64,000 nt of DNA from Candidatus Parcubacteria bacterium. Its GTDB lineage: Bacteria; Patescibacteriota; Patescibacteriia; PEXW01. The notes below the pieces were generated by a model. It did no database searches. It worked only from the letters and a program-made list of their open reading frames with translations, and had not been told where the DNA came from. The stretch's first letter is position 1. Each line of letters starts with the position of its first letter. Positions 2,758-52,679 of this stretch are shown here, one piece after another. Made by a program: the position numbers and the translations under genes. The DNA is taken from NCBI GenBank assembly GCA_003597955.1, contig QZJU01000020.1:13459-77458 (forward strand), in the 5' to 3' direction.

Positions 2758-2818
2758 GTTTTTGTACTTTTTATCTGTCATTGCGAGGAATCCCGCAGCG
2801 CGGGATGACGCGGCAATC

Positions 2819-3124
2819 TCATCTCTTCTTGTCCCGATCCTCACTCAAATCTTGCCATTTAGGATTAAGACTTTCAATTAACTCGATTTTCTTTTTTCTG
2901 GAACCAGCCTTGATTTGTTTCTCTCGGGCAATAGCATCCTGAATATACTGAAATTCTTCATAGTAAACTAGCTTATTAATATTGTATTTTTTGGTAAAGC
3001 CTTCGACTTGCTTATGCTTGTGTTGAAATACCCTACTTTCAAGACCCCCGGTAACGCCCGTATACAGAGTGGTATTGTACTTATTAGTCATAATATAAAC
3101 ATAAAACCGTTTTGGTCTTGGCAT
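2819..3124 (-). CDS. GIY-YIG nuclease family protein (UPF0213-type)
   Basis: YVYIMTN...LYTGVT...QHK...LVYYEEF...AIAREKQIK is a classic GIY-YIG domain. Length is 101 aa. Confidence 0.85.
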   Translation of the reverse strand: MPRPKRFYVYIMTNKYNTTLYTGVTGGLESRVFQHKHKQVEGFTKKYNINKLVYYEEFQYIQDAIAREKQIKAGSRKKKIELIESLNPKWQDLSEDRDKKR

Positions 3125-3183
3125 AGTTGGGTAAATAAGGAGATTGCTTCGCTACGCTCGCAATGACAATATGAATGCAAAAC

Positions 3184-6100
3184 CTACCCTCGCCAACGGT
3201 CTTCACAAATCTCCCGAAAATCGCAGGCTGCGCAAGTGAATTTTGAGGGTGTGGCCGCAAAATCACTTTGTAAAATTTCTGAAATTGTCTCGGAAATTTC
3301 CGCTTTGGTTTTCTCAATGGCCTTTTTATCCACCTTATAGGAAAAAGGCTTCTCCGTAGCCAAGTAAATATAGGTGAGTTTTACCGGATTTAATTTCAAA
3401 GCCTCTCTGGCGGCAATGGCATAGATGTGTAATTGCTTCAGTTCCGCGTCTTTTTCTTCTTCCGGCGGCCTTTCCGAAGTTTTATAATCTATAATTTCAA
3501 TGCCGCCAGCCGTGGGATCAATCCGATCGATTTTACCTTTGATTTTTTGATTCCCGATGCTGATGGTGAATCCTTTTTCCAAATCCAGGGGTCTTGGCCA
3601 AGGCTTTGGTAAGTTTTCATAAAACCGTTTTAAATACTCGATCCCCCGCTTTTTGTAGTCGTTTTTCTGGCGGACATCCTCATACCAGGAGTCAATCCAG
3701 GCAGCCTGGTAAAGCTGCTGCAATTCCGCCCAGGTGACCAGAGGTTCGGAATTTTCGGTTTTTTTGCCAATCGGGTTGCCGAAAAGATCCTGCTGATTGG
3801 CATTGCTCCGCTCCCTGACTAATTTAAAGAAATTCAAAAGCGTAGTGTGGATGGTCTGCCCAAAACTAAATGTCGCCCTGCCTTGAACCGGAATTTTCAA
3901 AAGGTGCGCGTACTTGTACTGCTTGGGACATTTTTCAAATGCCTTTAACTGCGTGAAACTGAAATACGGCGGCAAGGCTTTCTTGAGTAAAGCTAGATTG
4001 TTTTCTTTTTGCAATGGCCCGGTTTCCAATTTTTTTAAAAAGCTGGATTTTAATTTATGAACTCTGGATTTTAAGTCGAGTTCGAGTATAAACCTGGACG
4101 GTTTTTTCTTCCGTGTTCCGCCATAATCTTCAGCGGCGGTGAAAAATATGCCCCGCTTCGCCCGGGTAATGCCCACATACAGCAACCGCCTTTCCTCCTG
4201 CAAATGCCAATCCCCTTCCGGCAATCTTTCTTTTACTAACTCGTCCGGCAATTCGATTGGCTCCCGTCTTTCAATGGTCGGGAACCTTTTGTCGACCAAA
4301 TTAACTATGAAGACATAAGCGAATTCCAAGCCTTTGGCTCCGTGGACAGTCATAATTTTCACGGCTTCCGGACCTTGTTCCCATTCGGGCGGGCGCAAAC
4401 TGCCGCTGTCACCGGCTTCCTGGGCAAAAGCCAACTCTCTTAAAAAATTGCCAACCGTCGGTTCAGCGTGGCGGATTTGAAAATTATGAAAAATCTGAAA
4501 AAGCTGGTTGACATAATTAACCTGTTCCAAATGCTCCGCATCGGTTTTTTTTATTACTTCCTTAAGCAAGCCCGAGTCTTCCAAAAACCTTAAAGTGACC
4601 TCCCCAACTGGGTGGATCCTGGCTAATTGCGTATGCCGGTCTAGCCAGCTCAACAACCTCTCAATCGCAATTACGGTTTCGGGCTTTAACCCGCTTAGGA
4701 CGCGGACATTTCGGAGTATTTCATAAAGCGACTTTGTCTCCCGCCGGGCAATAGACATCAAAGTCATGATATCCGGCAAGGAGATTTTTAAAAGCGGCAA
4801 GGTTAAGATCCGATAAAGGCTCGGGGTCTCGTGGTAATTATCCAGAAGTTTTAAATAATTCAAAATATCCAAAATAATCGGCTGGCGATACAAGCCGGCA
4901 GAAGCCAAAAATTGAAATGGGATTTTCAGGTTTTTTAATTTCTGAATGAAAGGCGCGGCATAGTCGTTGGCCCGGACCAAAATCGCAAAATCGTTGTAGG
5001 AAACCTTGCCCTTGCCGGCTTTTCTGACAGCTAGGATTTTCTCAATGACCGCCAAAACTTCCTGTTCCATCGCCGGCATAAGCCAATACTCGATTTCGCC
5101 ACTGGCTTTGGTTTGGGCGACTAATTTCTTGTTGATGACCGGTTTTTTTGAATTTGGCGCTTGGTTTTGGCCGTTAAGCTGAACCTCCAGTCGATTGGGA
5201 TTGTTGTTTTGTATGAATGTGTAGGCCAGATCCAGGATATTCTGGCAGCTTCGGTAATTTTCCGTCAAAACGACTTCCGTGGTTTCCGGAAAATCTTTTT
5301 TAAAGGCTAAAATGTTCGCCACGGACGCGCCTCGAAATTTATATATGCTTTGATCATCGTCGCCCACAACCGTCAAATTGTTGTTCGGCTTAGCCAAAAG
5401 TTTAACCAGTTCGTATTGGGCCCAGTTGGTGTCTTGAAATTCGTCGACTAAAATATATTCGAATTGCTGACGGAATTTATTTAGGATCTTTGGCCGGTTT
5501 TGGAAAAGATACAAAGTCTGGGTGATCAGATCGCCGAAGTCCAACGCGCCTTTTTCAAAAAGCAACTGCTGGTAGGTGTGATAGGCATTAGCGACCTCGT
5601 TAACGCGCTCGGCTTCAACTATCTGATCGGCTTCGGCTTCGGTTTTTCTTTTTCGACCATGAACTTCATCCAAATCCAATTTTAATTTTTCCGCGTACTG
5701 CAAATATTCTTCCGGCCGAATAGCCTCGTCTTTGCAGCGCGAGAAATGCTTGACCAGGCTGGCGACAAAGCGGGTCGGATTGCCTAAAGGCCGATAATAA
5801 TTCAGATCAAAACGCTCCAAATTCTCCCGCATTAAAATTGCTTGGTCGGTTTCATCCAATAGTTTAAAGTCTGGATTTAAGCCGATGTCTAAAGCATGAT
5901 CCCGCAAAATTCTTTCGCAAAAGGCATGAAATGTGGAAACCCACAAATCCACGTAGCCCATGGGTAGAAGCTTGTCCACCCGCTCTTCCATTTCGCCGGC
6001 GGCTTTGTCCGTAAAAGTTAAGGCCAAAATATGATCCGGTTGAACCTTTCGCTCGGCAATCAGCCAAGCGATGCGCTGAGTGATGACCGTGGTTTTGCCT

Positions 6101-15178: not shown

Positions 15179-16282
15179 TTAAACATCTTCTTTTGGTTTT
15201 TCCAGCTCCAATGGCTCAATTTTTCCGCCCACTTCGGCGATTTTCAAAACATCTTTGTCGACTTTTTTAAATTCCTTGTAGGCCGTGTTGTATGTATTCA
15301 CCGTCGTGCCCAAATGGTTGCCCAATTTCTGCATATAAGCATCGTAATTTCCAATATGCTTGCCTAGCAATTCCACATTTTTCCGGATTTCCTTGGCTGA
15401 TTCTTCAATCTGCATGGCGCGCAAGCCTTCCAGCACGGTTTGTAAATAAGCCAGGAATGAAGTTGGCGAAACGATTATCACATGGTACTTAGAAGCGGCG
15501 CGCTGGATCAAATTCTCCGTATCATCGGTAATCGCCCCGATTTTATTGACCAGTAAATCATAATAAATTGCTTCGGAGGGGATGAACATAAACGCGAAAT
15601 CCATGGTGTCTTCGTTCGGCCGGATGTATTTGGCAGTTTCCTGAATCCGCATTTTTAGATCATTAACAAAAGCTTTCTCTAAAACTTTTCGCTCGCTCTC
15701 CACGCGCGTGGCCGCCAAGCGATTATAATTCTCCAAACTGAACTTAGAATCGACCGGCACCAACTTGCCTTTGATTTTCACCACCGCATCGACTATCTCC
15801 CCGTCTTTGAACTTATATTGCATTTGGTAGGAATTTGGGGGCAAGACATTTTTTAGGACCGTATCCAAAAAATATTCGCCTAAAATACCCCTTTGTTTGG
15901 GGTTTGTCAAAATATCCTGCAAGTTTCTTAGCTGATCGGAAAAATTCAAAACCTGCTTGTTTGTTTCATCCAGCCGGGTCAGGCGCTCGGTCACATCTTT
16001 GACAATCTTAGTCGAATGGCCGAATTGCTCTTGCATGGCCCGAGTGGATTCGCCTAATTTGGAATCCATCACCCGGGTCATTTCCGTATTTTTTTCGTTT
16101 AACTGAGCCAGTCTTTCTTCCAAACGAATCAGTTTTTCGTTACTGCCGCTATCGGTACCGCCGCGGCTTTGACGGAAAATAATAATCCCGATTCCGGTCA
16201 AGACTAAAACTATTAAAACAATCAATAGGATTTCCATAAGCTCCATTTTAAGCCAAAAACCAAGTTTCGTCCAAACCCGCAT
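15179..16282 (-). CDS. rmuC: DNA recombination protein RmuC
   Basis: N-terminal TM, a coiled-coil region and a conserved RmuC C-terminal domain (GILGEYFL...VDSKF...FMFIPSEAIYY). The true start may be an internal Met (MELMEILLI). Confidence 0.72.
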   Translation of the reverse strand: MRVWTKLGFWLKMELMEILLIVLIVLVLTGIGIIIFRQSRGGTDSGSNEKLIRLEERLAQLNEKNTEMTRVMDSKLGESTRAMQEQFGHSTKIVKDVTERLTRLDETNKQVLNFSDQLRNLQDILTNPKQRGILGEYFLDTVLKNVLPPNSYQMQYKFKDGEIVDAVVKIKGKLVPVDSKFSLENYNRLAATRVESERKVLEKAFVNDLKMRIQETAKYIRPNEDTMDFAFMFIPSEAIYYDLLVNKIGAITDDTENLIQRAASKYHVIIVSPTSFLAYLQTVLEGLRAMQIEESAKEIRKNVELLGKHIGNYDAYMQKLGNHLGTTVNTYNTAYKEFKKVDKDVLKIAEVGGKIEPLELEKPKEDV

Positions 16283-16442
16283 TATTTTTTAATAATGACC
16301 ACAACGATACTGATTCCCACAACCAAAACTAACCCTCTTTTTGAAAGTGACGGGGACAAGCTTGATTTTTTTTGGTAAGGGTGTTAATTTGGTTTTACCC
16401 TAAAAATCAATATAAAACCCGTCTTAAACCATGGAGGTTTGA

Positions 16443-16640
16443 ATGCCTGGTCAAAGTGCTTCTGGTTCAAAAACCCTCACCGACCAAAAACCACAAGACC
16501 ATCCCGAGAAGGAGCTCAACCTTGGCCCGCCAAAAAAAGGACGCGGGAAAAAAACTTCTGAAAGACGCAAACAAACCCGGGCTTGGACCACGGGCGGCGG
16601 CACTAAAATTACCCGCCACAGCGGCAATGGCCACCGGTAA
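16443..16640 (+). CDS. Small basic hypothetical protein (65 aa)
   Basis: A GGAGG RBS lies 7 nt upstream of the ATG. The protein is Lys/Arg-rich. The overlapping 94-aa ORF lacks an RBS. Confidence 0.25.
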   Translation: MPGQSASGSKTLTDQKPQDHPEKELNLGPPKKGRGKKTSERRKQTRAWTTGGGTKITRHSGNGHR

Positions 16641-16700
16641 AACCAAATTTTTTTGAACCTTTATTCATCCGCCTGCTTCTTTGGAATAAGCGGGCGCTTT

Positions 16701-17516
16701 TTATTTTGGTTCTGGATGTGACTTAAATGCTTTGACAAAATTATTATGGCACTCAACGCTTAGCTTAAAAAATTTCTCAACTTCAGTCTCATTAAAAGCC
16801 AAGCGATGGTAAGAAAAAAACCCATATTTGTTTTGTTTAAAAATCAACGAATTATACTGGAAATCATTAAACAAACAAATTAATTTTGGATCAAAAATTT
16901 CAGTTAGCATTTTACGCTCACTGCCATTTAGCCTGAATCTTTTATTGAAATATCTCGATTCTAGATCATGATCAAATTTTGATTCAAAGGCTCCTTCAGA
17001 TTCAAGCGAAAACCAATGCCGGGTTGGTTCGACTGGAAAGTGACAAAAAATTACCCCCCTTACCTTGCCGGTTTTATGATTCGAAAAATAGATGGGCAAG
17101 AAAAACACCTTGACTGGCCCCATGGCCGTCAAACCGCTTGCGATCCACGCAAACCTTATTGGCGCGCGATAGTCATCAGAATCGCTGTAGTAATAGATAA
17201 AGGTAGAAGAAAAATCTGGTTGTAAAAGTAAAGTTGATAATGATATCCAATAAATTATTCTGGGTCTTGGCTGAAAATCAACTCTTGGCGAAGATAAATT
17301 TTTAGAAAAATCATTCTTTCCTTTGGGAGTAAATAATTCAAATCTTTCAATGTTTAAATCATTTCTTTTCGCAAAATATAAAACCTGCTGATTTAAAGGC
17401 TCAAACCTCTCAATATAAATTTCAATTTGTTTTTTTCGTTCTTTTTCATAAAATTTAACGCCAAACCAAATTGCTACTGAGCCGATTAATAAAATAATCA
17501 AAACAAAAATAATCAT
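16701..17516 (-). CDS. Hypothetical membrane-anchored protein
   Basis: 271 aa with an N-terminal TM. No recognisable domain. Its stop overlaps the start of tatD. Confidence 0.4.
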   Translation of the reverse strand: MIIFVLIILLIGSVAIWFGVKFYEKERKKQIEIYIERFEPLNQQVLYFAKRNDLNIERFELFTPKGKNDFSKNLSSPRVDFQPRPRIIYWISLSTLLLQPDFSSTFIYYYSDSDDYRAPIRFAWIASGLTAMGPVKVFFLPIYFSNHKTGKVRGVIFCHFPVEPTRHWFSLESEGAFESKFDHDLESRYFNKRFRLNGSERKMLTEIFDPKLICLFNDFQYNSLIFKQNKYGFFSYHRLAFNETEVEKFFKLSVECHNNFVKAFKSHPEPK

Positions 17517-25213: not shown

Positions 25214-25302
25214 GGTGCTTTTAGCTTACGATTTTTTGCTCAAAAACACAAGAAAAAAGCGGACCTTAATTGATCCGCTTTTAAAAACTAAAGAACGCTT
25301 TA

Positions 25303-25376
25303 TGCGGGCAGGTGGAATTGCACCACCGACGTTCGGGTTAATAATCCCCGACATTCTACTCCTGAGTTATACCCGC
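25303..25376 (-). pseudogene. tRNA-like element (possible degenerate tRNA)
   Basis: It has a 7-bp acceptor stem GCGGGTA/TGCCCGC, a perfect T-arm GGTGG-TGCAATT-CCACC, and U8, A14, G15 and G18. The D-stem cannot pair canonically and the anticodon stem has a mismatch. The putative anticodon would be UAU. Confidence 0.25.
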
Positions 25377-25606
25377 AATTTTTATAGCCCCGGGCTGGAT
25401 TTGTCCCGCCATAGAGGCGGGATGCCGCCGACTTTTGTTGACTTCAATAGATGGCGGCAAACCAGCAACCTTCGGTAAATTCCTGCACATGCCCATTAAT
25501 ACTGAGGCTCCCTGCCTGTCGCCAGGCAGGTACCGACTAAGCTACCGGGGTGACTTTTTTGCGAATTTTCACCTTAGCATACGCGCCGTTTTCAAGTCAA
25601 AAAACT

Positions 25607-41270: not shown

Positions 41271-41518
41271 GGCATTAGTATATCACTTCGGCCTTTTGGA
41301 AATTTCTTGAAATCTTCAGTACTTAAAAACATTTTTATGCCTCGATGCTGGAGATGCGATGGAAAGGTCATGGCCCCACCCACGCGCCCATTGACATTTC
41401 CTCCCAAATACATTATTCTGACTTATTCTTTGACAATATCCCGAGTAATAACCTCGGGCCGAAATCTCGCCGGGACGCGAGAAAACAAACAGTAATCCTG
41501 AAAAGGAGGATGAAGACG

Positions 41519-42421
41519 ATGTCACAGAAGACATTGATCCCGTCCAGAGTCACCCGTGATTCCAAGAAGGGCCAGAGAATTCTGGACCTCGTGGGTGCCG
41601 TCATCAACAAGCTTGGCCTTGATGAAGACCAGGCCCAGCGGGTAATCGAGAATCCCGAATTCCCGCCAGCTGTCGAAGCCGTATTGCGAACCTACGCGAT
41701 TCCGAATGAGTACGCCGATGAAGAGGTCTCCTCGAATTATGGCTACTTGTCCGGCTATCGCGAGGCAGCACCGATCGCTGACCAGATGCGCATCTTGCGC
41801 GAATACTTCCCGAACCTTGGTGATCCGGATGAAAGCTTCGCCAAGCAGGAACGTCCGGCAAACAGCGAAGGGTACTTCTGTATCCCGCGCTGGAAGCTGA
41901 TCGCCCCGACCTACAACGAGGCTGTCGAGAGGGTGCTCGAAGCGCTCAACAAACAACGCAAGGGCAAGTTCGTCAACTACCACAAAGGTGAACTCGGCCC
42001 GGATCGTTTGAGGCAGGGCGAACGGAAGCGTCTCGCTTTCGAGCGGCTCACCGTAGAGCAGGGACGTGACGTCCTTGTGGTGGCTGCCCAGTTCGGCTTC
42101 CAGCATCACGGACGTTCGGTTCGCAGAGCTCGTGCAGTCATGCCTGGCATCGAGTTCGGCCTTGGTGCCTTCGAGATCGGCATCATGCTGCTGACGCATG
42201 CGATCCGTCTCCAGCATCTCGACGACCTCTGGATCGACTGCCCTGGTGATGAGTACTCACCTGACGCTGGTGGCCGCTTCGGCGACGCCCCGTACTTCTA
42301 CTTCGGCAATGGCAAGCTCGAGTTCGGCACGGACCTCGTCGGCAATGCCAGCGGCCGCTGTGGGTCGGCGTCCGGGTTTTTACCCGCCGAAGCAACTGCG
42401 AAGGCGGGCTCTCCGCAGTAG
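41519..42421 (+). CDS. Hypothetical protein encoded by a GC-rich (about 60%) foreign-looking segment
   Basis: The ORF is open from 41345. The start was chosen at the ATG 9 nt after an AGGAGG RBS. Codon third positions are G/C-rich, unlike the rest of the window. No recognised domain. Confidence 0.5.
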   Translation: MSQKTLIPSRVTRDSKKGQRILDLVGAVINKLGLDEDQAQRVIENPEFPPAVEAVLRTYAIPNEYADEEVSSNYGYLSGYREAAPIADQMRILREYFPNLGDPDESFAKQERPANSEGYFCIPRWKLIAPTYNEAVERVLEALNKQRKGKFVNYHKGELGPDRLRQGERKRLAFERLTVEQGRDVLVVAAQFGFQHHGRSVRRARAVMPGIEFGLGAFEIGIMLLTHAIRLQHLDDLWIDCPGDEYSPDAGGRFGDAPYFYFGNGKLEFGTDLVGNASGRCGSASGFLPAEATAKAGSPQ

Positions 42422-43662: not shown

Positions 43663-44069
43663 GGGGATGTTCATAAGTTGATAGTTTGCTTTGACAATTA
43701 GCCTGCGGACCGCCTTTTTCGGGAATGGCGTAAAACTTTCTGAAAATTAGACAAATGCCAATTCATTTGTCAGCAAAGTGAAGACTGCATTGGCCAAAAC
43801 CTTTGCCGTCCCAGCTTTCGCTCCGGTTGTTGCTTAAAAACCAATAACCCATTCGCCCCGCAGCCTGATGCGGGATTCGCGAGTGTTAAATTTCAGGCTG
43901 GATATTTTTCACCGCGCGCTGAAAAATATTGAGAAACTTGCGCGCTTTGGCGTTTTGCGATCTTGGTTGTTCCCTGCGCAAAATGTCGAAAACCCTTGAA
44001 CAACCTATGTCCGAAGAAAGTTAATTGCCGGTAAACTAGACAGGGGTGCAAGACCCCTCATCTCCACCA
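43663..44069 (+). ncRNA. ssrA: tmRNA (ssrA)
   Basis: The 5' GGGGATG pairs with the 3' CATCTCC-A-CCA, giving a 7-bp acceptor stem with a G3·U70 wobble (the alanine identity element). A T-arm AGGGG-TGCAAGA-CCCCT directly precedes it. A D-analog UUCAUAAGUUGAUA follows the 5' strand. It sits immediately downstream of smpB. A candidate tag ORF ends ...FAPVVA-TAA. Confidence 0.72.
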
Positions 44070-47538: not shown

Positions 47539-47651
47539 GCTTGGCATAAAATAAAACCCGTGATACAATCGCCTGTGCATTTAACAAATGGACCCGTAGT
47601 GCCTGCCCGCCACTACTAATTATTAGGCGATGGCAGGCGGGTAGCGGTTAA

Positions 47652-47690
47652 CCCCGCACCATTCCTCGCTAACGCTCGGATGGTACGGGG
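47652..47690. repeat. REP-like imperfect hairpin ccccgcaccattcc...ggatggtacgggg
   Basis: 'ccccgcacca' family. It lies just upstream of tRNA-Asp. Confidence 0.5.
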
Positions 47691-47708
47691 CAAGCACGCC
47701 AAGTTTTT

Positions 47709-47787
47709 GGGCTCGTGGTGTAGCCCGGTCTAACACGTCTCCCTGTCACGGAGAAGATCGCCGGTTCAAATCCGGTCGAGCCCGCCA
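47709..47787 (+). tRNA. tRNA-Asp (anticodon GUC), CCA encoded
   Basis: Acceptor GGGCTCG/CGAGCCC, D-stem GTGT/ACAC, anticodon stem TCTCC/GGAGA with loop CTGTCAC, T-arm GCCGG-TTCAAAT-CCGGT, discriminator G, then CCA. Confidence 0.9.
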
Positions 47788-47841
47788 GAAGTAAGCCTTC
47801 CTGCCTGCCCCGCAAACACGAACGAAGTGAGTGTTGTGTGG

Positions 47842-47888
47842 GGTCACGGAGAAGATCGTCCCGCCGAATGGCGGGGTCAGGTCCGCCA
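47842..47888 (+). repeat. Degenerate direct repeat of the tRNA-Asp 3' half (att-like scar)
   Basis: ggtcacggagaagatcg matches 16 of 17 nt of the tRNA anticodon-arm 3' side. It ends ...ccgcca like the tRNA 3' end. It lies 55 nt downstream of the tRNA. Confidence 0.55.
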
Positions 47889-48025
47889 AGAAAATTAAGT
47901 ATCAAATAGACTCGATAGCCTTAACATAACTCAAGTGTAGAATATGGTTAGATAATAGCCAATATTCGTATAAAAACGAGTTGTGCGAAATTTGGCCTCA
48001 AACTTAACGATTAAACCTTTAAAAT

Positions 48026-48202
48026 ATGAGCAATGATAACAACAATTCTTTGGAAGTGTTTTGTACTAACTGTGATTTCAAAGGGGCTATTACCCTTCTG
48101 GAACTTATGCTACTAGAGGACTTCGAGTGCCCAAAATGTAGACACAAAGAACTTAGAAAAAGGTCGAGGGCGGGAAGAATACTTCCTGGTTCCGGAGAAT
48201 AA
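48026..48202 (+). CDS. Zinc-ribbon miniprotein (58 aa, CxxC-x17-CxxC)
   Basis: MSNDNNNSLEVFCTNCDFKGAITLLELMLLEDFECPKCRHKELRKRSRAGRILPGSGE. Absent from the ORF track, presumably because it falls below the length cut-off. It lies in the AT-rich islet. Confidence 0.4.
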   Translation: MSNDNNNSLEVFCTNCDFKGAITLLELMLLEDFECPKCRHKELRKRSRAGRILPGSGE

Positions 48203-48276
48203 TCACATTTGAGATGTTCGGCCAAAAATCGCACAACACGGGCTAGCCGGTTCGTAAAGTTACTAATAATATTTTT

Positions 48277-48471
48277 ATGAAAAAATATCTTCACATTATT
48301 GTGATTTTTATACTCCTGATCGTAACAATAGTATTCTGGGAAGAATACTCTTTTCGTAAAAAAATTCAGGCAATAAACTACGAAAAGTGTCTTGCTAGTG
48401 TCCCAGATGACGCTAACTGGTCGATGTTACAAGAGGTTACCTTTCCACACTGTCTTCAAATTACAAAGTAA
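48277..48471 (+). CDS. Small membrane protein (64 aa, one TM)
   Basis: MKKYLHIIVIFILLIVTIVFW.... No clear RBS. Confidence 0.3.
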   Translation: MKKYLHIIVIFILLIVTIVFWEEYSFRKKIQAINYEKCLASVPDDANWSMLQEVTFPHCLQITK

Positions 48472-48652
48472 CTCACCCAAATTGCTCGCTCTCTTACGCG
48501 GTCGGCTCCGCCGCAATGATACCGCGACGTTCGCTCGCAACTTCGGCTAGCCCGAAACGTTAACGAACCGCAGTTCCTCAACTTTGTTCAATTCTCATTT
48601 CCCAACCCCTACCCACCTGCCTCAAGTCCCACAAAAAATTTTTATACACTAA

Positions 48653-48683
48653 AACTCCCATCTGCGAAGATGGGAGTTTTTTA
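48653..48683 (+). terminator. Rho-independent terminator
   Basis: Hairpin ctcccatc-tgcgaa-gatgggag followed by a T6 run. Confidence 0.65.
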
Positions 48684-48880
48684 AATAAACTTTAGAAATA
48701 CTTTCTGGGTTTACCCGCAACTAATTGCTTATCCGGAAATAGGTTTTGGGGATATTGCCTTTGCTGTCAGTGATGGCAAAATTCCAATATCATTTATAGA
48801 AATTTGCTTGACTTATACAAGAATTTAACCTAAGGTCAAGAAAATCAAAAAATAAAGTACTTTAAAAAGAAGGAGATAAA

Positions 48881-49813
48881 ATGCTAAATAGTCAAATCGC
48901 TTTAGGTAGCGTAATTCATACAAGCGATGATGCGTTTTGGTATTGTGCTGGGCACTGGAAAATTAACAATATCCAAGATGCATGCCCTTGTATTTTGGCA
49001 TACATTCCATTAGAAGAGGCAAGAAGCAATTCTCTTAAGGTAGAGAAAACTCTCGAATTTAATGGCCGTATATATGTTAAAGTTTTTGGCCGCTATGGGC
49101 AAACTCTTGAAATATATAGAAAGGTATTAATTGCCACACGGCATAAGCTTATTTGGCCTTTACACCTAGGAAGATCGGCATTTGTAAAATATTCAGCAAT
49201 AGTGGAAGTCCGCGATCCAAGGAGTTTTCTCCACGTCTTTACGGCAAATTTGGATGATGCAGAAGAAATATTTTCAGAGTTATCAAAAATATTACAAGTC
49301 CCTTTAAATCAAATGGGACTCAGTGGAAGCAACTTAGTCATTAATGTGCCTATGTGGAGACATGAGAATGATTTTGTTATTTACGGTACCTCTACGAGTC
49401 GAAACGCTTTTAATCTAATTGAAGCCAACCGTGATGAAAAAACATTTTCTCGAAGTGCATTACCGCCATTCCACACCCAATTTAAATTTAAAAACATGTG
49501 GTTTGACCCAATATTTAGCCCAGAAGTAGAAACTAGGCATTTCTTTGATGGATGTTTATTGGAAGTTGGGGAATCAATCGGAGAAGTGACCTCCATTATA
49601 AGTGAGGATAAAGATGGAATTTTCTTTCCGGCGGTATATACATTACAAAACGGGATTAGGCTATTTTCTTTTCGAATTAGCCATAGAGGATTATTTACAA
49701 AAAATAGGCCGGTCTCCTTTTCTTCTTTATCACGAATAATACTGACATACCCCGACGGTCACAAAGAAGACGCTTATGGTATACTTGACGATGAATGGGC
49801 CACACCCGGATAA
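48881..49813 (+). CDS. Hypothetical protein (310 aa) of the AT-rich islet, co-transcribed with a NUDIX hydrolase
   Basis: A strong AAGGAGA RBS is upstream. Codon usage is AT-rich. No recognisable domain. Its 3' end overlaps the NUDIX start by 19 nt. Confidence 0.5.
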   Translation: MLNSQIALGSVIHTSDDAFWYCAGHWKINNIQDACPCILAYIPLEEARSNSLKVEKTLEFNGRIYVKVFGRYGQTLEIYRKVLIATRHKLIWPLHLGRSAFVKYSAIVEVRDPRSFLHVFTANLDDAEEIFSELSKILQVPLNQMGLSGSNLVINVPMWRHENDFVIYGTSTSRNAFNLIEANRDEKTFSRSALPPFHTQFKFKNMWFDPIFSPEVETRHFFDGCLLEVGESIGEVTSIISEDKDGIFFPAVYTLQNGIRLFSFRISHRGLFTKNRPVSFSSLSRIILTYPDGHKEDAYGILDDEWATPG

Positions 49814-50301
49814 GTCCACAAGTTGTCGTACTTCGTCATAACCAACAAGGCTATGAAGAGGTATTGTTAATCCAACGAGCTGATACGGGAATTTGGACAA
49901 TACCCGGCGGCACTGTTGAAACTGGAGAATCTTTGGAACAAGCTGCGATTCGGGAGACCAAAGAAGAAACTGGGTATGATGTAAGTTTAATTCACCAAGT
50001 CGGAAAATATAGCCTCCCCCATATGCAATTCTTGGGAGAGGCTATTGTTTTTGTTGGAAAAATTAACGGCGGCGAATCTAAAATTGGCCTTGAATCCACT
50101 CAGGTTGTTTGGTTCAATGTTAACCGCTTGCCATATAAATTACTGCCTTTCCAAAAACCAAAAATTAAAGACGCCCTGGCGGGTAAAACCAAAATAAACA
50201 AAGAATTACCAACCACGACTTGGCAGGTTTTAAGGCATTACCTTATTTTCCCGCGAATTTTCTTCAGGCTCTTAAAGTTTTACCGGAAATACAAAAAGTA
50301 A
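49795..50301 (+). CDS. NUDIX hydrolase
   Basis: Nudix box GGTVETGESLEQAAIRETKEETG. 168 aa. Confidence 0.75.
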   Translation: MGHTRISPQVVVLRHNQQGYEEVLLIQRADTGIWTIPGGTVETGESLEQAAIRETKEETGYDVSLIHQVGKYSLPHMQFLGEAIVFVGKINGGESKIGLESTQVVWFNVNRLPYKLLPFQKPKIKDALAGKTKINKELPTTTWQVLRHYLIFPRIFFRLLKFYRKYKK

Positions 50302-50318
50302 AACTTGTGAATGCTGAA

Positions 50319-52679
50319 TTACTCACTAATCCGGAAAAATTTTCGGGGTATGTTTCCCTTGCTATCGGTAATGGCAAACGCGCCTTTTTTGATTACTTGC
50401 TGGGTGTCGCGATTGACGATTTTCACATCATAAAGACCCGGCTGCATTTTGCCGTATGGGATCAACATATTTATGTTCGTGCTGCTTTTAACAAAAGTTT
50501 TCAAACGGTAAGGTCCAATTGTTACTTGGGTGCCGTTTCGGAAATTTTTGCCAAAAATATCCAGATACGCTTTTTGCGTGGCAGAACTTACCTGCTTTAG
50601 CCGCGCCACCAAGAAGCGGGAATAAACCGGGCCAGGCTGGCCGAATTTCGGGCCGCCCACCAAATCCACAGTTCGAATCAAGTCGTTGGTACTATCCGCA
50701 ACATATAAAGTGTTGCCGTCGCGGCTGACGGCCAGGCTGGCCAGACCGTTAAACTTGGCTTGGAAGCGCGTGCCATTCCGATAGCCGGTTTCGCCGGCGC
50801 CGGAAACCAAGGTCATTATGCCGGTTTGGGTATTAACCACGGTAATCCGGCTCGAACCAGCATTACTAATATACAAAAGGTTATTCTGGCCCATGGCCAA
50901 GCCGACTGGCACAGAAAGGGCCGCGTTTACGCCTTTGCCTTCGGCGTAGCCGACGCGGTTACCCACCAAGGTGGTTACGGTTTGAGTTGCCAGGTCGATC
51001 ACCCGGATCCGATGGCTGCCTTGCTCGGCAACATACAAAGTCAGGCCGTCTTCGGAAATCGCCAAACGCCTGGGTTGATTAAAGCTGGCCAAATCCCCAA
51101 CGCCGTTTGTCGAGCCAGCTGCACCCGAGCCCGCGATTAAAGTAGTCAGGCCGTCGGAAATCCTGACGCTACGAATCCGGTTATTGCCCGTGTCGGCTAT
51201 GTATAAAATTTGGCCGTCAGGCGAAATTTCAATGCCTTGGGGTCCGCGGAAATAAGCACAACCCGCAACGCTAAGATCTTGGGTTTCGCATTTCGTACCT
51301 TCTTGGTAGCCGTTATTCATCGCGCCCGTGGAATTTATCAGACCCGCTCCGGTAATCAGCGAGGATGTTGGCGTGCCGGCCAAGGTGACTTTGCGAACTC
51401 TATTGTTCCAACGATCGACTAAATACAAAGTGGCGTCATCAGAACTTAGTACAATCGAGGAGATGGTGCTAAATCTCACCCGAGTAGTTTCTTGATTTGC
51501 CGGCCCTTCCCCGTAATCGTCGACCATGTCGCCAATAACCGTGGTGGTTTCGCCGGTGGCTAAAATAATTTTCTTAATCTGGTTATTAACCGCGGCGTAC
51601 ATAATTGAACCGTCTGTAGTCATGGCAAAGGCCGCGGGTCGGCCGAGTAAAACCCCGCCTTTGATGTCGTCTACATTCCCAAACCGAGTTGAGCCAATGA
51701 AACCTTCTTCATCCGTAGGTAAAGATTTGCTGTAACGGTGAATTGTGCCTATGCCGGAATTCGCCACATAGACATTGTTGCCATAAACCCTTAAGCCGCA
51801 AGGAAAATTCAAATCTTGCATGCGAAAATCTGTGGCAAATAACGAAGTTTGTTTGGTGGTTAAATCAATGGCCCGCACATAATCAGTCAGGCCATTGCCG
51901 TCGCTGACATACAAAGTGTTGCCGTCGCGGGTAATGCCCCAGACATTCTGGAATATTGCCTCTTCACCCACTCCTTCCCAATACCCTGAAATGCCTGAGC
52001 CAGCAATAACACTTGCTTGGCCAGTGGCAATGTTAACGCTTAAAACTCGGTGTGAGCCGCTGTCGGCCACATATAATTCAAGCCCATCAGCTGACAAGGC
52101 CAGTTTTTTCGGCGCCTTAACCTGCGTGGAAACCGTTAGTAGCCGACCGCCGGTTATGCTGATTTTCCGAATGGCATTATTGTCTGTATCCGCTATGAAT
52201 AGGGTTGACCCATTAACTAAAACGCCCTGGGGGTTCTTTAGGCCAGTTCTAACCAAGGTTGAAACTGTACCATTGGTTTTAACGACCCGAATGCGATTAT
52301 TGGCTGAATCCGCTACATATAAATTGCCATTTGTGTCTCTGGCCAAACCCCGCGGCAAGGCAAAATTTGCACCACGCGCCACGCCGTCACGGTTTCCGTA
52401 CCCACCGTTTCCGGCATAAGTTGAAACTGTGCCATCCGGTGAAACTTTTCTAATGACATTGTTGTATGTGTCGGCGATAAAAAAAGTGCCGTCAGCCGTT
52501 ATTTCCAAATCTTCGGGAAAATCTAAAAGCGCTTGGGTTCGACCCAAACCGTCACCCGCGTAGATCTTCCCCAAAAATGTCGTGGTGTCGCCATAGGCCG
52601 CTAATGACATTTTTGGCAAAACCAAAGCTCCCGCGCTTAAAACCAGAGCGGAAATCAGAAGTTTTAAATAAAGCTTCAT
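50319..52679 (-). CDS. Secreted NHL-repeat beta-propeller protein with a C-terminal IPT/TIG-like domain
   Basis: Signal peptide, many NHL-like repeats (YVAD/YIAD...NNRI motifs) and a C-terminal Ig-like domain. 786 aa. Confidence 0.68.
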   Translation of the reverse strand: MKLYLKLLISALVLSAGALVLPKMSLAAYGDTTTFLGKIYAGDGLGRTQALLDFPEDLEITADGTFFIADTYNNVIRKVSPDGTVSTYAGNGGYGNRDGVARGANFALPRGLARDTNGNLYVADSANNRIRVVKTNGTVSTLVRTGLKNPQGVLVNGSTLFIADTDNNAIRKISITGGRLLTVSTQVKAPKKLALSADGLELYVADSGSHRVLSVNIATGQASVIAGSGISGYWEGVGEEAIFQNVWGITRDGNTLYVSDGNGLTDYVRAIDLTTKQTSLFATDFRMQDLNFPCGLRVYGNNVYVANSGIGTIHRYSKSLPTDEEGFIGSTRFGNVDDIKGGVLLGRPAAFAMTTDGSIMYAAVNNQIKKIILATGETTTVIGDMVDDYGEGPANQETTRVRFSTISSIVLSSDDATLYLVDRWNNRVRKVTLAGTPTSSLITGAGLINSTGAMNNGYQEGTKCETQDLSVAGCAYFRGPQGIEISPDGQILYIADTGNNRIRSVRISDGLTTLIAGSGAAGSTNGVGDLASFNQPRRLAISEDGLTLYVAEQGSHRIRVIDLATQTVTTLVGNRVGYAEGKGVNAALSVPVGLAMGQNNLLYISNAGSSRITVVNTQTGIMTLVSGAGETGYRNGTRFQAKFNGLASLAVSRDGNTLYVADSTNDLIRTVDLVGGPKFGQPGPVYSRFLVARLKQVSSATQKAYLDIFGKNFRNGTQVTIGPYRLKTFVKSSTNINMLIPYGKMQPGLYDVKIVNRDTQQVIKKGAFAITDSKGNIPRKFFRISE

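Follow-up and report, generated by a model that had tools for sequence, protein, structure and literature searches.

Nucleotidyltransferases (NTases) of the Pol-beta superfamily (PF01909, PF18765; MNT, poly(A)/U polymerases and CCA enzymes) share one core fold, with an hG[GS] motif and, after a short helix, [DE]x[DE] on the strand that comes next. Nucleotide-transferring enzymes have also been described as parts of several coupled systems. The MenAT and AbiE toxin systems are small, bicistronic, mobile and sporadically distributed, and they have a Pol-beta-type core; MenT toxins are NTases of tRNA 3' ends (PMC10435456, PMC11541572). In phages, generating domains that are paired with Nudix proteins have been proposed to act as signal toggles (PMC7824862). 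In NadM-Nudix, a nicotinamide mononucleotide adenylyltransferase is fused to an ADP-ribose pyrophosphatase (PMC9503650). Here, we describe a two-gene operon that couples a 310-amino-acid (aa) putative NTase (NCBI locus C4546_04340) to a 168-aa Nudix hydrolase (NUDIX), and the cassette on which it lies. It is found on a metagenome-assembled contig of Candidatus Parcubacteria, within the candidate phyla radiation (CPR). The 64,000 nucleotides (nt) of this contig that were analyzed are called the window, and all coordinates refer to it unless another locus (L number) is named; related proteins carry P numbers. The operon forms the right part of an AT-rich islet of about 2.4 kb close to a tRNA-Asp gene, and JGI contigs from two samples carry a gene for an identical 310-aa protein.

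By motif and predicted fold, the 310-aa protein is a member of the Pol-beta superfamily that falls in no named family. The helical substrate-binding domains of poly(A) polymerases (PAPs), terminal uridylyltransferases (TUTases), CCA enzymes and kanamycin NTases are absent from it. The pair differs from MenAT and AbiE by a Nudix partner in place of MenA or AbiEi, by the lack of a DUF1814 signature and by its extra OB and N-terminal domains. It is likewise set apart from HEPN-MNT systems by the Nudix partner and by the lack of any HEPN or MNT family match in Pfam and PADLOC. With the CD-NTases of cyclic oligonucleotide-based antiphage signaling systems (CBASS) it shares the NTase core and the logic of a synthase plus a degrader (PMC7824862), but here no effector accompanies the pair at the loci examined, no CD-NTase model is matched and the C-terminal domain is a different one. 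NadM-Nudix shows the same coupling of a nucleotidyltransferase to a Nudix domain; NadM, however, has a HIGH-motif Rossmann fold with both activities fused, whereas the present pair has a Pol-beta fold and two genes. The NCBIfam NadM-Nudix models were matched weakly and over the Nudix part only. The domain order of NTase followed by OB is also that of mRNA capping enzymes and ligases, whose counterparts are Nudix decapping enzymes; one relative of the operon adds an S-adenosylmethionine (SAM) methyltransferase, and Dcp2-type proteins are among the sequence neighbours of NUDIX. Capping enzymes and ligases are built on an ATP-grasp-like fold that forms a covalent lysyl-nucleoside monophosphate (NMP) and carries the KxDG motif. 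This fold differs from the Pol-beta core, and the likeness is one of analogy only. Lastly, genomic islands that target tRNA genes combine an attachment-site (att) duplication with a tyrosine integrase. The present locus resembles them in that a copy of a tRNA 3' half lies beside a foreign-looking stretch, but its repeats do not enclose that stretch, no integrase is annotated within ~10 kb and the repeat is kept in a relative that has no islet.

The nucleotidyltransferase family and its Nudix partner

The 310-aa protein had been described in a first-pass annotation of the window as having no recognisable domains. At the level of Pfam, NCBIfam, PHROG and PADLOC this holds, as no match was found in any of them. 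PDB sequence searches with the protein, with the family profile and with an archaeal member gave nothing meaningful. A word-indexed homologue search recovered 2 proteins by single sequence and 8 by profile, and an exhaustive profile search with a hidden Markov model was needed to obtain the family: 55 relatives among 1.84 billion representative proteins, 16 of them below 1e-30. The named members belong to CPR (Parcubacteria, Woesebacteria) and the distant ones to Odinarchaeia, Bathyarchaeota, Korarchaeota and Methanofastidiosia; without exception they carry the annotation 'hypothetical'.

The 44-sequence family alignment is dominated by a single signature, G-[IL]-x-G-S...R-x-[DE]-x-D-[FIL]-V-[IV]-Y-G. 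The hG[GS] motif is G146-L-S-G149-S150, placed between a strand (145-147) and a helix (149-154), and at least 90% of the 44 members keep G149 and S150. The [DE]h[DE]h pair is E162-N-D164-F on strand 162-168; D164 is invariant across the alignment, and in its displayed rows position 162 is D or E. The presumed third carboxylate is D209 (WFDP, strand 206-213), which is conserved in the CPR and high-GC clades. Archaeal members exceed the gathering score of PF01909 over the NTase-motif region; scores of 21.5-26.4 bits (cut-off 21) were obtained for P0053, P0055, P0056, P0044 and an Odinarchaeial paralog. The window protein itself has no match to PF01909 or PF18765 and is linked to PF01909 only transitively.

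The fold that escaped the domain libraries was revealed by structure prediction, a check that the first-pass annotation had called for. The AlphaFold2 model, made with the family alignment, has a predicted local distance difference test score (pLDDT) of 95.1 and a predicted template modeling score (pTM) of 0.92. It contains the alpha-beta-alpha-beta-alpha-beta core of the Pol-beta superfamily. Structural alignment of the core covers a palm of ~90-100 residues, with MenT1 and MNT among its structural neighbours, and the neighbours of the OB fold include SSB, RPA and POT1. The other half of that check was negative: against the PDB, Foldseek gave no match for the full-length model at E<=0.001, and no full-length counterpart of the three-domain layout (basic beta, NTase core, acidic OB) was found there. 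Together, the motif signature, the archaeal PF01909 matches and the confident model point to three domains: one of beta structure, a Pol-beta-type NTase core and an OB fold.

The second gene of the operon encodes a protein that matches PF00293 with 67.8 bits against a cut-off of 21.1. Its Nudix box (GX5EX7REUXEEXGU) is present as GTVETGESLEQAAIRETKEETGY, and G38/G39, E45, R53, E54, E57 and E58 are invariant across six Nudix partners. Judged by these motifs, the acidic pair of the NTase is intact and the Nudix hydrolase is predicted to be catalytically intact. The nearest PDB relatives of NUDIX are generic MutT, Ap4A, NADH and Dcp2 types. Its tail (residues 135-168) holds 9 K/R in 34 residues, has an isoelectric point (pI) of 10.75 and is not hydrophobic. 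A similar basic tail is found in the Nudix partners of L001 and L005 and is missing from the 149-aa partners. It is conceivable that the tail contacts the acidic OB domain of the NTase. The first-pass description of a two-gene operon with a strong ribosome-binding site and an overlapping stop and start was confirmed by the PF00293 match, by an AAGGAGA ahead of the NTase and by an overlap of 19 nt between the two open reading frames (ORFs). A weak promoter-like site lies at 48764-48793.

A Nudix gene adjoins the NTase gene in seven CPR lineages (the window, P0002, P0003, P0004, P0010, Woesebacteria L010 and P0005), and the neighbourhoods differ. The ORFs overlap in the window and at P0002, P0003, P0004 and P0010; in L010 they are 31 nt apart on the same strand, and at P0005 they are convergent. 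Identities to the window copy of 46, 52, 27, 29 and 33% for NUDIX stand against 44, 50, 33, 35 and 36% for the NTase, so that the two proteins are co-diverging. As read from gene order and sequence, the pair is tightly co-inherited and usually translationally coupled. The view that it is an accessory unit rather than a core one at this position was borne out, with a cassette-free relative (L019) and with the pair found in at least seven CPR lineages in different neighbourhoods. Homologues of the pair were found neither in phage and plasmid collections (tblastn) nor in IMG/VR viral contigs; the related-locus search that covered the viral contigs, made with a narrow alignment, gave a single locus in genomes. 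The literature search returned no description of this NTase family or of its Nudix pairing.

Other neighbours were found at some loci. In L010 (Woesebacteria RIFCSPHIGHO2_01_FULL_44_10, 2791-4965) the operon runs from the SAM methyltransferase through the NTase to the Nudix gene. The NTase of L010 is 76% identical to P0010 and has lost ~50 OB-domain codons with a change of frame; it is probably a pseudogene. One CPR member of the family has a DUF5919 neighbour instead of a Nudix gene. For distant members, the neighbours are a P-loop kinase-like gene, a prenyltransferase gene or, beside Nop5 and fibrillarin, a tandem paralog. At P0024 the kinase-like gene overlaps and precedes the NTase relative. 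In Odinarchaeia (L016/L017, 5001-7044), P0052 is followed by an overlapping 358-aa paralog, also with an NTP_transf_2 match, directly upstream of Nop5 and fibrillarin. As a possible third component, the neighbours of 227-234 aa in L001, L005 and L006 were considered and rejected, being mutually non-homologous.

Table 1. Coordinates of the features in and around the islet (window positions; strand as + or -, with a point for a feature read on both).
Feature	Position	Strand	Evidence
Promoter-like site TTGGCA-17-TACAAT with TG extension	47541..47569	+	Consensus scan, 10/12 matches; upstream of the tRNA-Asp unit
Leader resembling positions 1-28 of the L019-type tRNA-Asp (GGACCCGTAGTG / TAGCGGTTAAC / ACGCC), with two hairpin inserts	47590..47700	+	By-eye comparison
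tRNA-Asp(GTC), intact	47709..47787	+	ARAGORN; Rfam RF00005, 64 bits
Pseudo 3' half of tRNA-Asp	47842..47888	+	16-nt exact repeat and alignment
58-aa CxxC...CxxC zinc-ribbon gene	48026..48202	+	ORF; weak zinc-ribbon family matches only
64-aa ORF with one N-terminal hydrophobic helix, putative gene	48277..48471	+	ORF; Kyte-Doolittle 19-residue maximum 2.47 at residue 4
Bidirectional terminator hairpin: 13-bp perfect stem, A-tract before, T-tract after	48651..48680	.	Inverted repeat and folding
Left direct repeat: displaced last 19 codons and stop of the NHL/TIG gene, FAITDSKGNIPKTYFRISN then stop	48719..48780	-	Direct repeat; tblastx E 5e-6
Cassette leader with AAGGAGA ribosome-binding site (48870-48876)	48781..48880	+	Sequence
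310-aa putative NTase: basic N-terminal beta domain (~1-110), Pol-beta NTase core (~113-215), C-terminal OB fold (~216-310)	48881..49813	+	
168-aa Nudix hydrolase: intact Nudix box, very basic C-terminal tail	49795..50301	+	PF00293, 1.2e-18
Right direct repeat: in-use 3' end of the NHL/TIG gene, FAITDSKGNIPRKFFRISE then stop	50317..50378	-	Direct repeat, tblastx, flank alignment
786-aa NHL-repeat/TIG protein gene, host gene of the insertion site	50319..52679	-	Pfam NHL and TIG matches

The insertion site and the tRNA-Asp repeat

The stretch from 47.9 to 50.3 kb is compositionally foreign. The first-pass annotation had noted an AT-rich stretch of about 2.4 kb, and at 47889-50316 the G+C content is indeed 38.4%, against 45.7% for the whole window and lower than in any other part of the window of equal size. 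At third codon positions the values are 0.31 (310-aa gene) and 0.40 (NUDIX), compared with 0.52-0.53 in the flanking genes. The operon itself is bracketed by direct repeats of 62 nt, with a flank alignment z of 9.7 against shuffled controls. The two copies differ at 17 sites, 12 of which are third codon positions (P=0.002). Both copies of the NHL gene end have therefore diverged as parts of working genes, one of them imported with the cassette. The best explanation of the sequence is that a cassette of ~1.6 kb (48781-50378) was acquired horizontally and was inserted into the last 60 nt of the NHL gene, not into the tRNA-Asp gene. The left 830 nt of the islet are best seen as a separate patch of variable DNA and not as part of the cassette.

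The synteny comparison of the tRNA-Asp locus that had been proposed was possible with L019. In this relative the NHL ortholog (78% aa identity) is preceded by a gene in syntenic position, and there is no cassette. Its tRNA-Asp lies 97 nt after the stop codon, and the NHL gene runs directly into the tRNA-Asp promoter. Which of the two NHL ends in the window is the resident one was too close to call, with 50/62 positions identical to L019 in the displaced copy and 46/62 in the copy in use. Brackets of the same kind occur at other loci. In L030 they lie at 80-188 and 1720-1866 (z 27.7) and comprise the promoter and the first 21 codons of an XRE-like gene, with coding differences that are all synonymous except for the stop that ends the upstream copy. 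In L010 they lie at 2615-2702 and 4968-5055 (z 22.5) and comprise an intergenic promoter/operator segment. A bracket of 21 nt in L001 (1213-1233 and 2793-2813) is marginal, with z 4.9. The bracketing repeats are imperfect copies of local host sequence, which is different in each genome.

Most likely, the cassette would have entered by recombination with donor DNA that carried it next to a diverged copy of the NHL gene, leaving behind one imported and one resident gene end. Homology-facilitated illegitimate recombination and single-crossover integration of a circle are the two candidate routes; both would fit the pattern, which does not tell them apart. Both routes are known from natural transformation. 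Some assemblies stop near the cassette. The contig of L020, an NHL relative, breaks off 13 nt short of the repeat boundary, at the equivalent of window position 50391. At the P0004 locus, four independent assemblies (L006-L009) all end ~50 nt past the stop codon of the NTase, just within the Nudix gene that overlaps it. These breaks at cassette edges are a hint of population heterogeneity there.

The tRNA-Asp gene had offered a different explanation of the islet. In the first-pass annotation, a degenerate direct repeat of the tRNA 3' half was reported and was taken for the scar of site-specific integration, which would make the whole 2.4-kb stretch the remnant of an element integrated at tRNA-Asp. 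The repeat is statistically real. The window holds exactly two occurrences of the 16-mer GTCACGGAGAAGATCG, at 47745 and 47843, where 0.01 are expected allowing <=2 mismatches, and the copies also have a similar acceptor strand with GCCA. The pseudo 3' half retains the segment from the anticodon loop to the variable region, followed by a hairpin in place of the T arm (UCCCGCC-GAAU-GGCGGGG) and then by the acceptor 3' strand and GCCA. The AT-rich stretch adjoins the repeat, and the pair in L001 also lies between tRNA genes with a 17-nt copy of a tRNA-Pro 3' end nearby. However, the two tRNA-derived copies, whose starts are only 98 nt apart, are both upstream of the islet. The pseudo 3' half begins only 55 nt past the tRNA; these 55 nt are all that the repeats enclose, which leaves the islet outside them. 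No third copy, at the far end or elsewhere, was found within the window. Within ~10 kb to the left and right, no annotated gene carries an integrase or recombinase domain, and the ORFs in the left part of the islet have no Pfam match. L019, which has no islet, nevertheless has the tRNA-Asp, a homologous spacer and a pseudo 3' half (3647-3686) whose T arm is replaced by a related hairpin. The tRNA repeat is therefore old and unrelated to the cassette, which has a scar of its own in the duplicated 3' end of the NHL gene. The integration-scar interpretation was not sustained: the model of a tRNA-integrated island is largely refuted, and we regard it as very improbable.

The tRNA-Asp unit has a structure of its own. 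The intact tRNA-Asp is seemingly nested in the remnants of a second tRNA-Asp of the L019 type (window 47590-47888; L019 3446-3690). The pseudo 3' half supplies positions 34-76 of this tRNA, with the acceptor strand CAGGTCC and GCCA. The leader at 47590..47700 is context that lies outside the cassette. An upstream GGACC(C) is predicted to pair with a downstream GG(G)TCC in the window genome and in L019 alike; in the minimum free energy fold of the window sequence, GGACC at 47591-47595 pairs with GGUCC at 47879-47883. In each genome the pseudo-half copies the anticodon-arm/variable segment of the local tRNA (GTCACGGAGAAGATCG in the window, GGAGGAGACCG in L019), which suggests concerted evolution or a leader-trailer helix. 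The block ..cccgtg.TACAATcg.. is also found upstream of tRNA-Asp in L019. A lenient Rfam scan of 47.4-48.9 kb returned only the tRNA. In L001, 17 nt from the 3' end of a tRNA-Pro(GGG) gene recur without change 114 nt further downstream (993-1009 and 1124-1140), with a GC hairpin in the spacer. Short copies of tRNA 3' ends shortly downstream of tRNA genes may be a recurrent trait of these Parcubacteria.

Possible functions of the pair

The function that we tentatively prefer, while rating it somewhat short of probable, is that of a horizontally spread module with a 'nucleotide writer' and a Nudix 'eraser' acting on RNA or other nucleic-acid ends. The NTase and NUDIX would share a single nucleotide-containing substrate, on which one would write and the other erase. 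From a nucleoside triphosphate, the NTase would transfer NMP onto an acceptor, and the Nudix enzyme would cleave a nucleoside-diphosphate-X bond in the product of the NTase, in its precursor or in the same target. In the preferred version, the NTase would tail 3' ends or place cap-like tags on 5' ends of RNA or another nucleic acid, and the Nudix enzyme would remove a 5' pyrophosphate or cap. This version is favored because of the structural neighbours, the OB fold and the methyltransferase, kinase and Nop5/fibrillarin contexts. The RNA-end theme that the SAM methyltransferase of L010, the kinase-like gene of P0024 and the Odinarchaeial Nop5/fibrillarin context suggest is a weak one.

Several observations weigh against the writer-eraser reading and against the horizontal spread that it includes. 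D209 is replaced in several archaeal and distant family members. The OB domain is acidic, with a pI of 5.0 in a protein that is near neutral as a whole, and binding of nucleic acid by it is therefore not automatic; it may instead bind a protein (e.g., the basic Nudix tail) or a small ligand. Distant members of the family have no Nudix neighbour. The Nudix sequence points to no substrate class: 27 of 27 NCBIfam matches are far below their cut-offs, the best being NudC with 41.6 against 158 bits. No flanking repeats were found in L005, L011/L012 and L018. Moreover, the absence of the cassette from the single relative L019 is compatible with gain or loss, which this comparison cannot separate.

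The idea of a small accessory system, with defence as one example, has in part been upheld. The pair has the character of an accessory module, but the evidence leaves defence or anti-defence neither upheld nor refuted: no known defence, toxin-antitoxin or CBASS model of PADLOC or Pfam was matched by the 310-aa protein, and NUDIX gave a generic Nudix match only. It has been considered whether the pair is a toxin-antitoxin or abortive-infection module, in which the NTase, as a toxin, would arrest growth by nucleotidylating the acceptor ends of tRNAs or some other essential target, and NUDIX would be the antidote that removes the substrate or the modification. We judge this unlikely. In its favor, the unit is small, has two translationally coupled genes and belongs to a rare, sporadic family; it is mobile, given that the L010 and L030 copies are 76% identical in different contexts; the L010 copy is decayed; and MenT1 and MNT are among the structural neighbours of the core. 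Against a toxin speaks the chemistry of its supposed antidote, as Nudix enzymes cut pyrophosphate bonds and not the phosphodiester bonds that a MenT-like toxin would form. DUF1814/AbiEii was not matched, nor was any PADLOC model of a toxin-antitoxin or abortive-infection system. In the P0005 lineage the genes are convergent and therefore not co-transcribed, and the archaeal relatives are tandem paralogs next to housekeeping RNA-modification genes.

A nucleotide-signal toggle would have the NTase make a linear or cyclic oligonucleotide or another second messenger, as CD-NTases and OAS do, and the Nudix enzyme degrade it. The synthase-Nudix toggles proposed for phages (PMC7824862) speak for this, and one distant family member weakly matches the PADLOC oligonucleotide-cyclase model (E 0.0076). 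It nonetheless appears improbable: no effector or sensor gene stands beside the pair at any locus examined, the window protein has no CD-NTase or SMODS family match, and an OB fold takes the place of the helical C-terminal lobe of CD-NTases. There is similarly little likelihood of a DNA-repair pair, with the NTase as a minimal family-X-like gap-filling or terminal transferase on single-stranded DNA and a MutT-type Nudix enzyme that cleans the deoxynucleoside triphosphate pool. SSB, RPA and POT1 as neighbours of the OB fold would agree with repair, as would the closest PDB sequence relatives of NUDIX, which are MutT/8-oxo-dGTPase-like. However, the 8-kDa, fingers and thumb domains of family X are absent and only the palm is aligned, the acidity of the OB domain counts against this role too, and the rarity and mobility of the pair are left unexplained. 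A bolder proposal takes in both the writer-eraser reading and the toxin: a new kind of self-spreading conflict or RNA-end-marking module of CPR and archaea, either a bacterial cap-like tag/untag system or an NTase toxin with a Nudix antidote, that would move by recombination duplicating neighbouring host gene ends, as seen at three to four loci that are independent and differ in the host sequence duplicated. We consider this quite unlikely as a whole.

Other features of the window and implications

Each of the sequence features named in the first-pass annotation was located in the window, including those in the left part of the islet. The 58-aa zinc-ribbon ORF described there is a gene, as its conservation indicates: a homologue (P0077) with 55% identity over 97% of the length is found on four other CPR contigs in unrelated context. 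A 21-nt inverted repeat (47977-47997 and 48220-48240; 86% complementary, 0.02 expected) flanks the gene and could be a regulatory or transcript-stabilizing stem or the ends of a miniature element. Its arms are partly conserved around the zinc-ribbon homologue in L032. The 64-aa membrane ORF is present with a strongly hydrophobic N-terminal segment, but its status as a gene is unsupported; it had no family match in the domain and family libraries scanned, and no dedicated homologue search was made. As a counterpart of the gene that follows the zinc-ribbon homologue in L032 it was rejected, the sequences being dissimilar. The terminator proved as strong as had been claimed, with folding energies of -20.2 kcal/mol on the + strand (z -7.5) and -18.9 kcal/mol on the - strand (z -5.9). 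Read in the minus sense, it lies 40 nt beyond the displaced NHL stop codon and is probably the original terminator of the NHL gene.

Elsewhere in the window, a second AT-rich stretch (15800-17500; 37-39% G+C) holds a 367-aa gene resembling RmuC, along with an ORF of 271 aa that has no Pfam match. A spike in G+C of 0.56-0.63 coincides with a 303-aa ORF (41500-42420), also with no Pfam match. A tmRNA was found by Rfam at 43663-44069 (81.8 bits), directly downstream of the SmpB gene, where ARAGORN was silent. A tRNA-Ile with the anticodon TAT lies on the minus strand at 25302-25377 and has a low Rfam score of 38.9 bits.

For a family annotated only as hypothetical, the fold, the active site and the constant partner can now be named. 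The literature that was searched describes no system in which this NTase has a constant Nudix partner. The locus also calls for caution, in that a tRNA-fragment repeat beside foreign DNA need not mark the integration site of that DNA. Diverged copies of a host gene end that differ mostly at synonymous sites are, in turn, a signature of how foreign genes enter these genomes without an integrase. A Pol-beta NTase-OB protein tied to a Nudix hydrolase is a testable candidate for the tagging and untagging of RNA, DNA or a metabolite with nucleotides. In CPR bacteria, with their small genomes and mostly uncharacterized accessory biology, the pair has the behavior of a mobile accessory unit.

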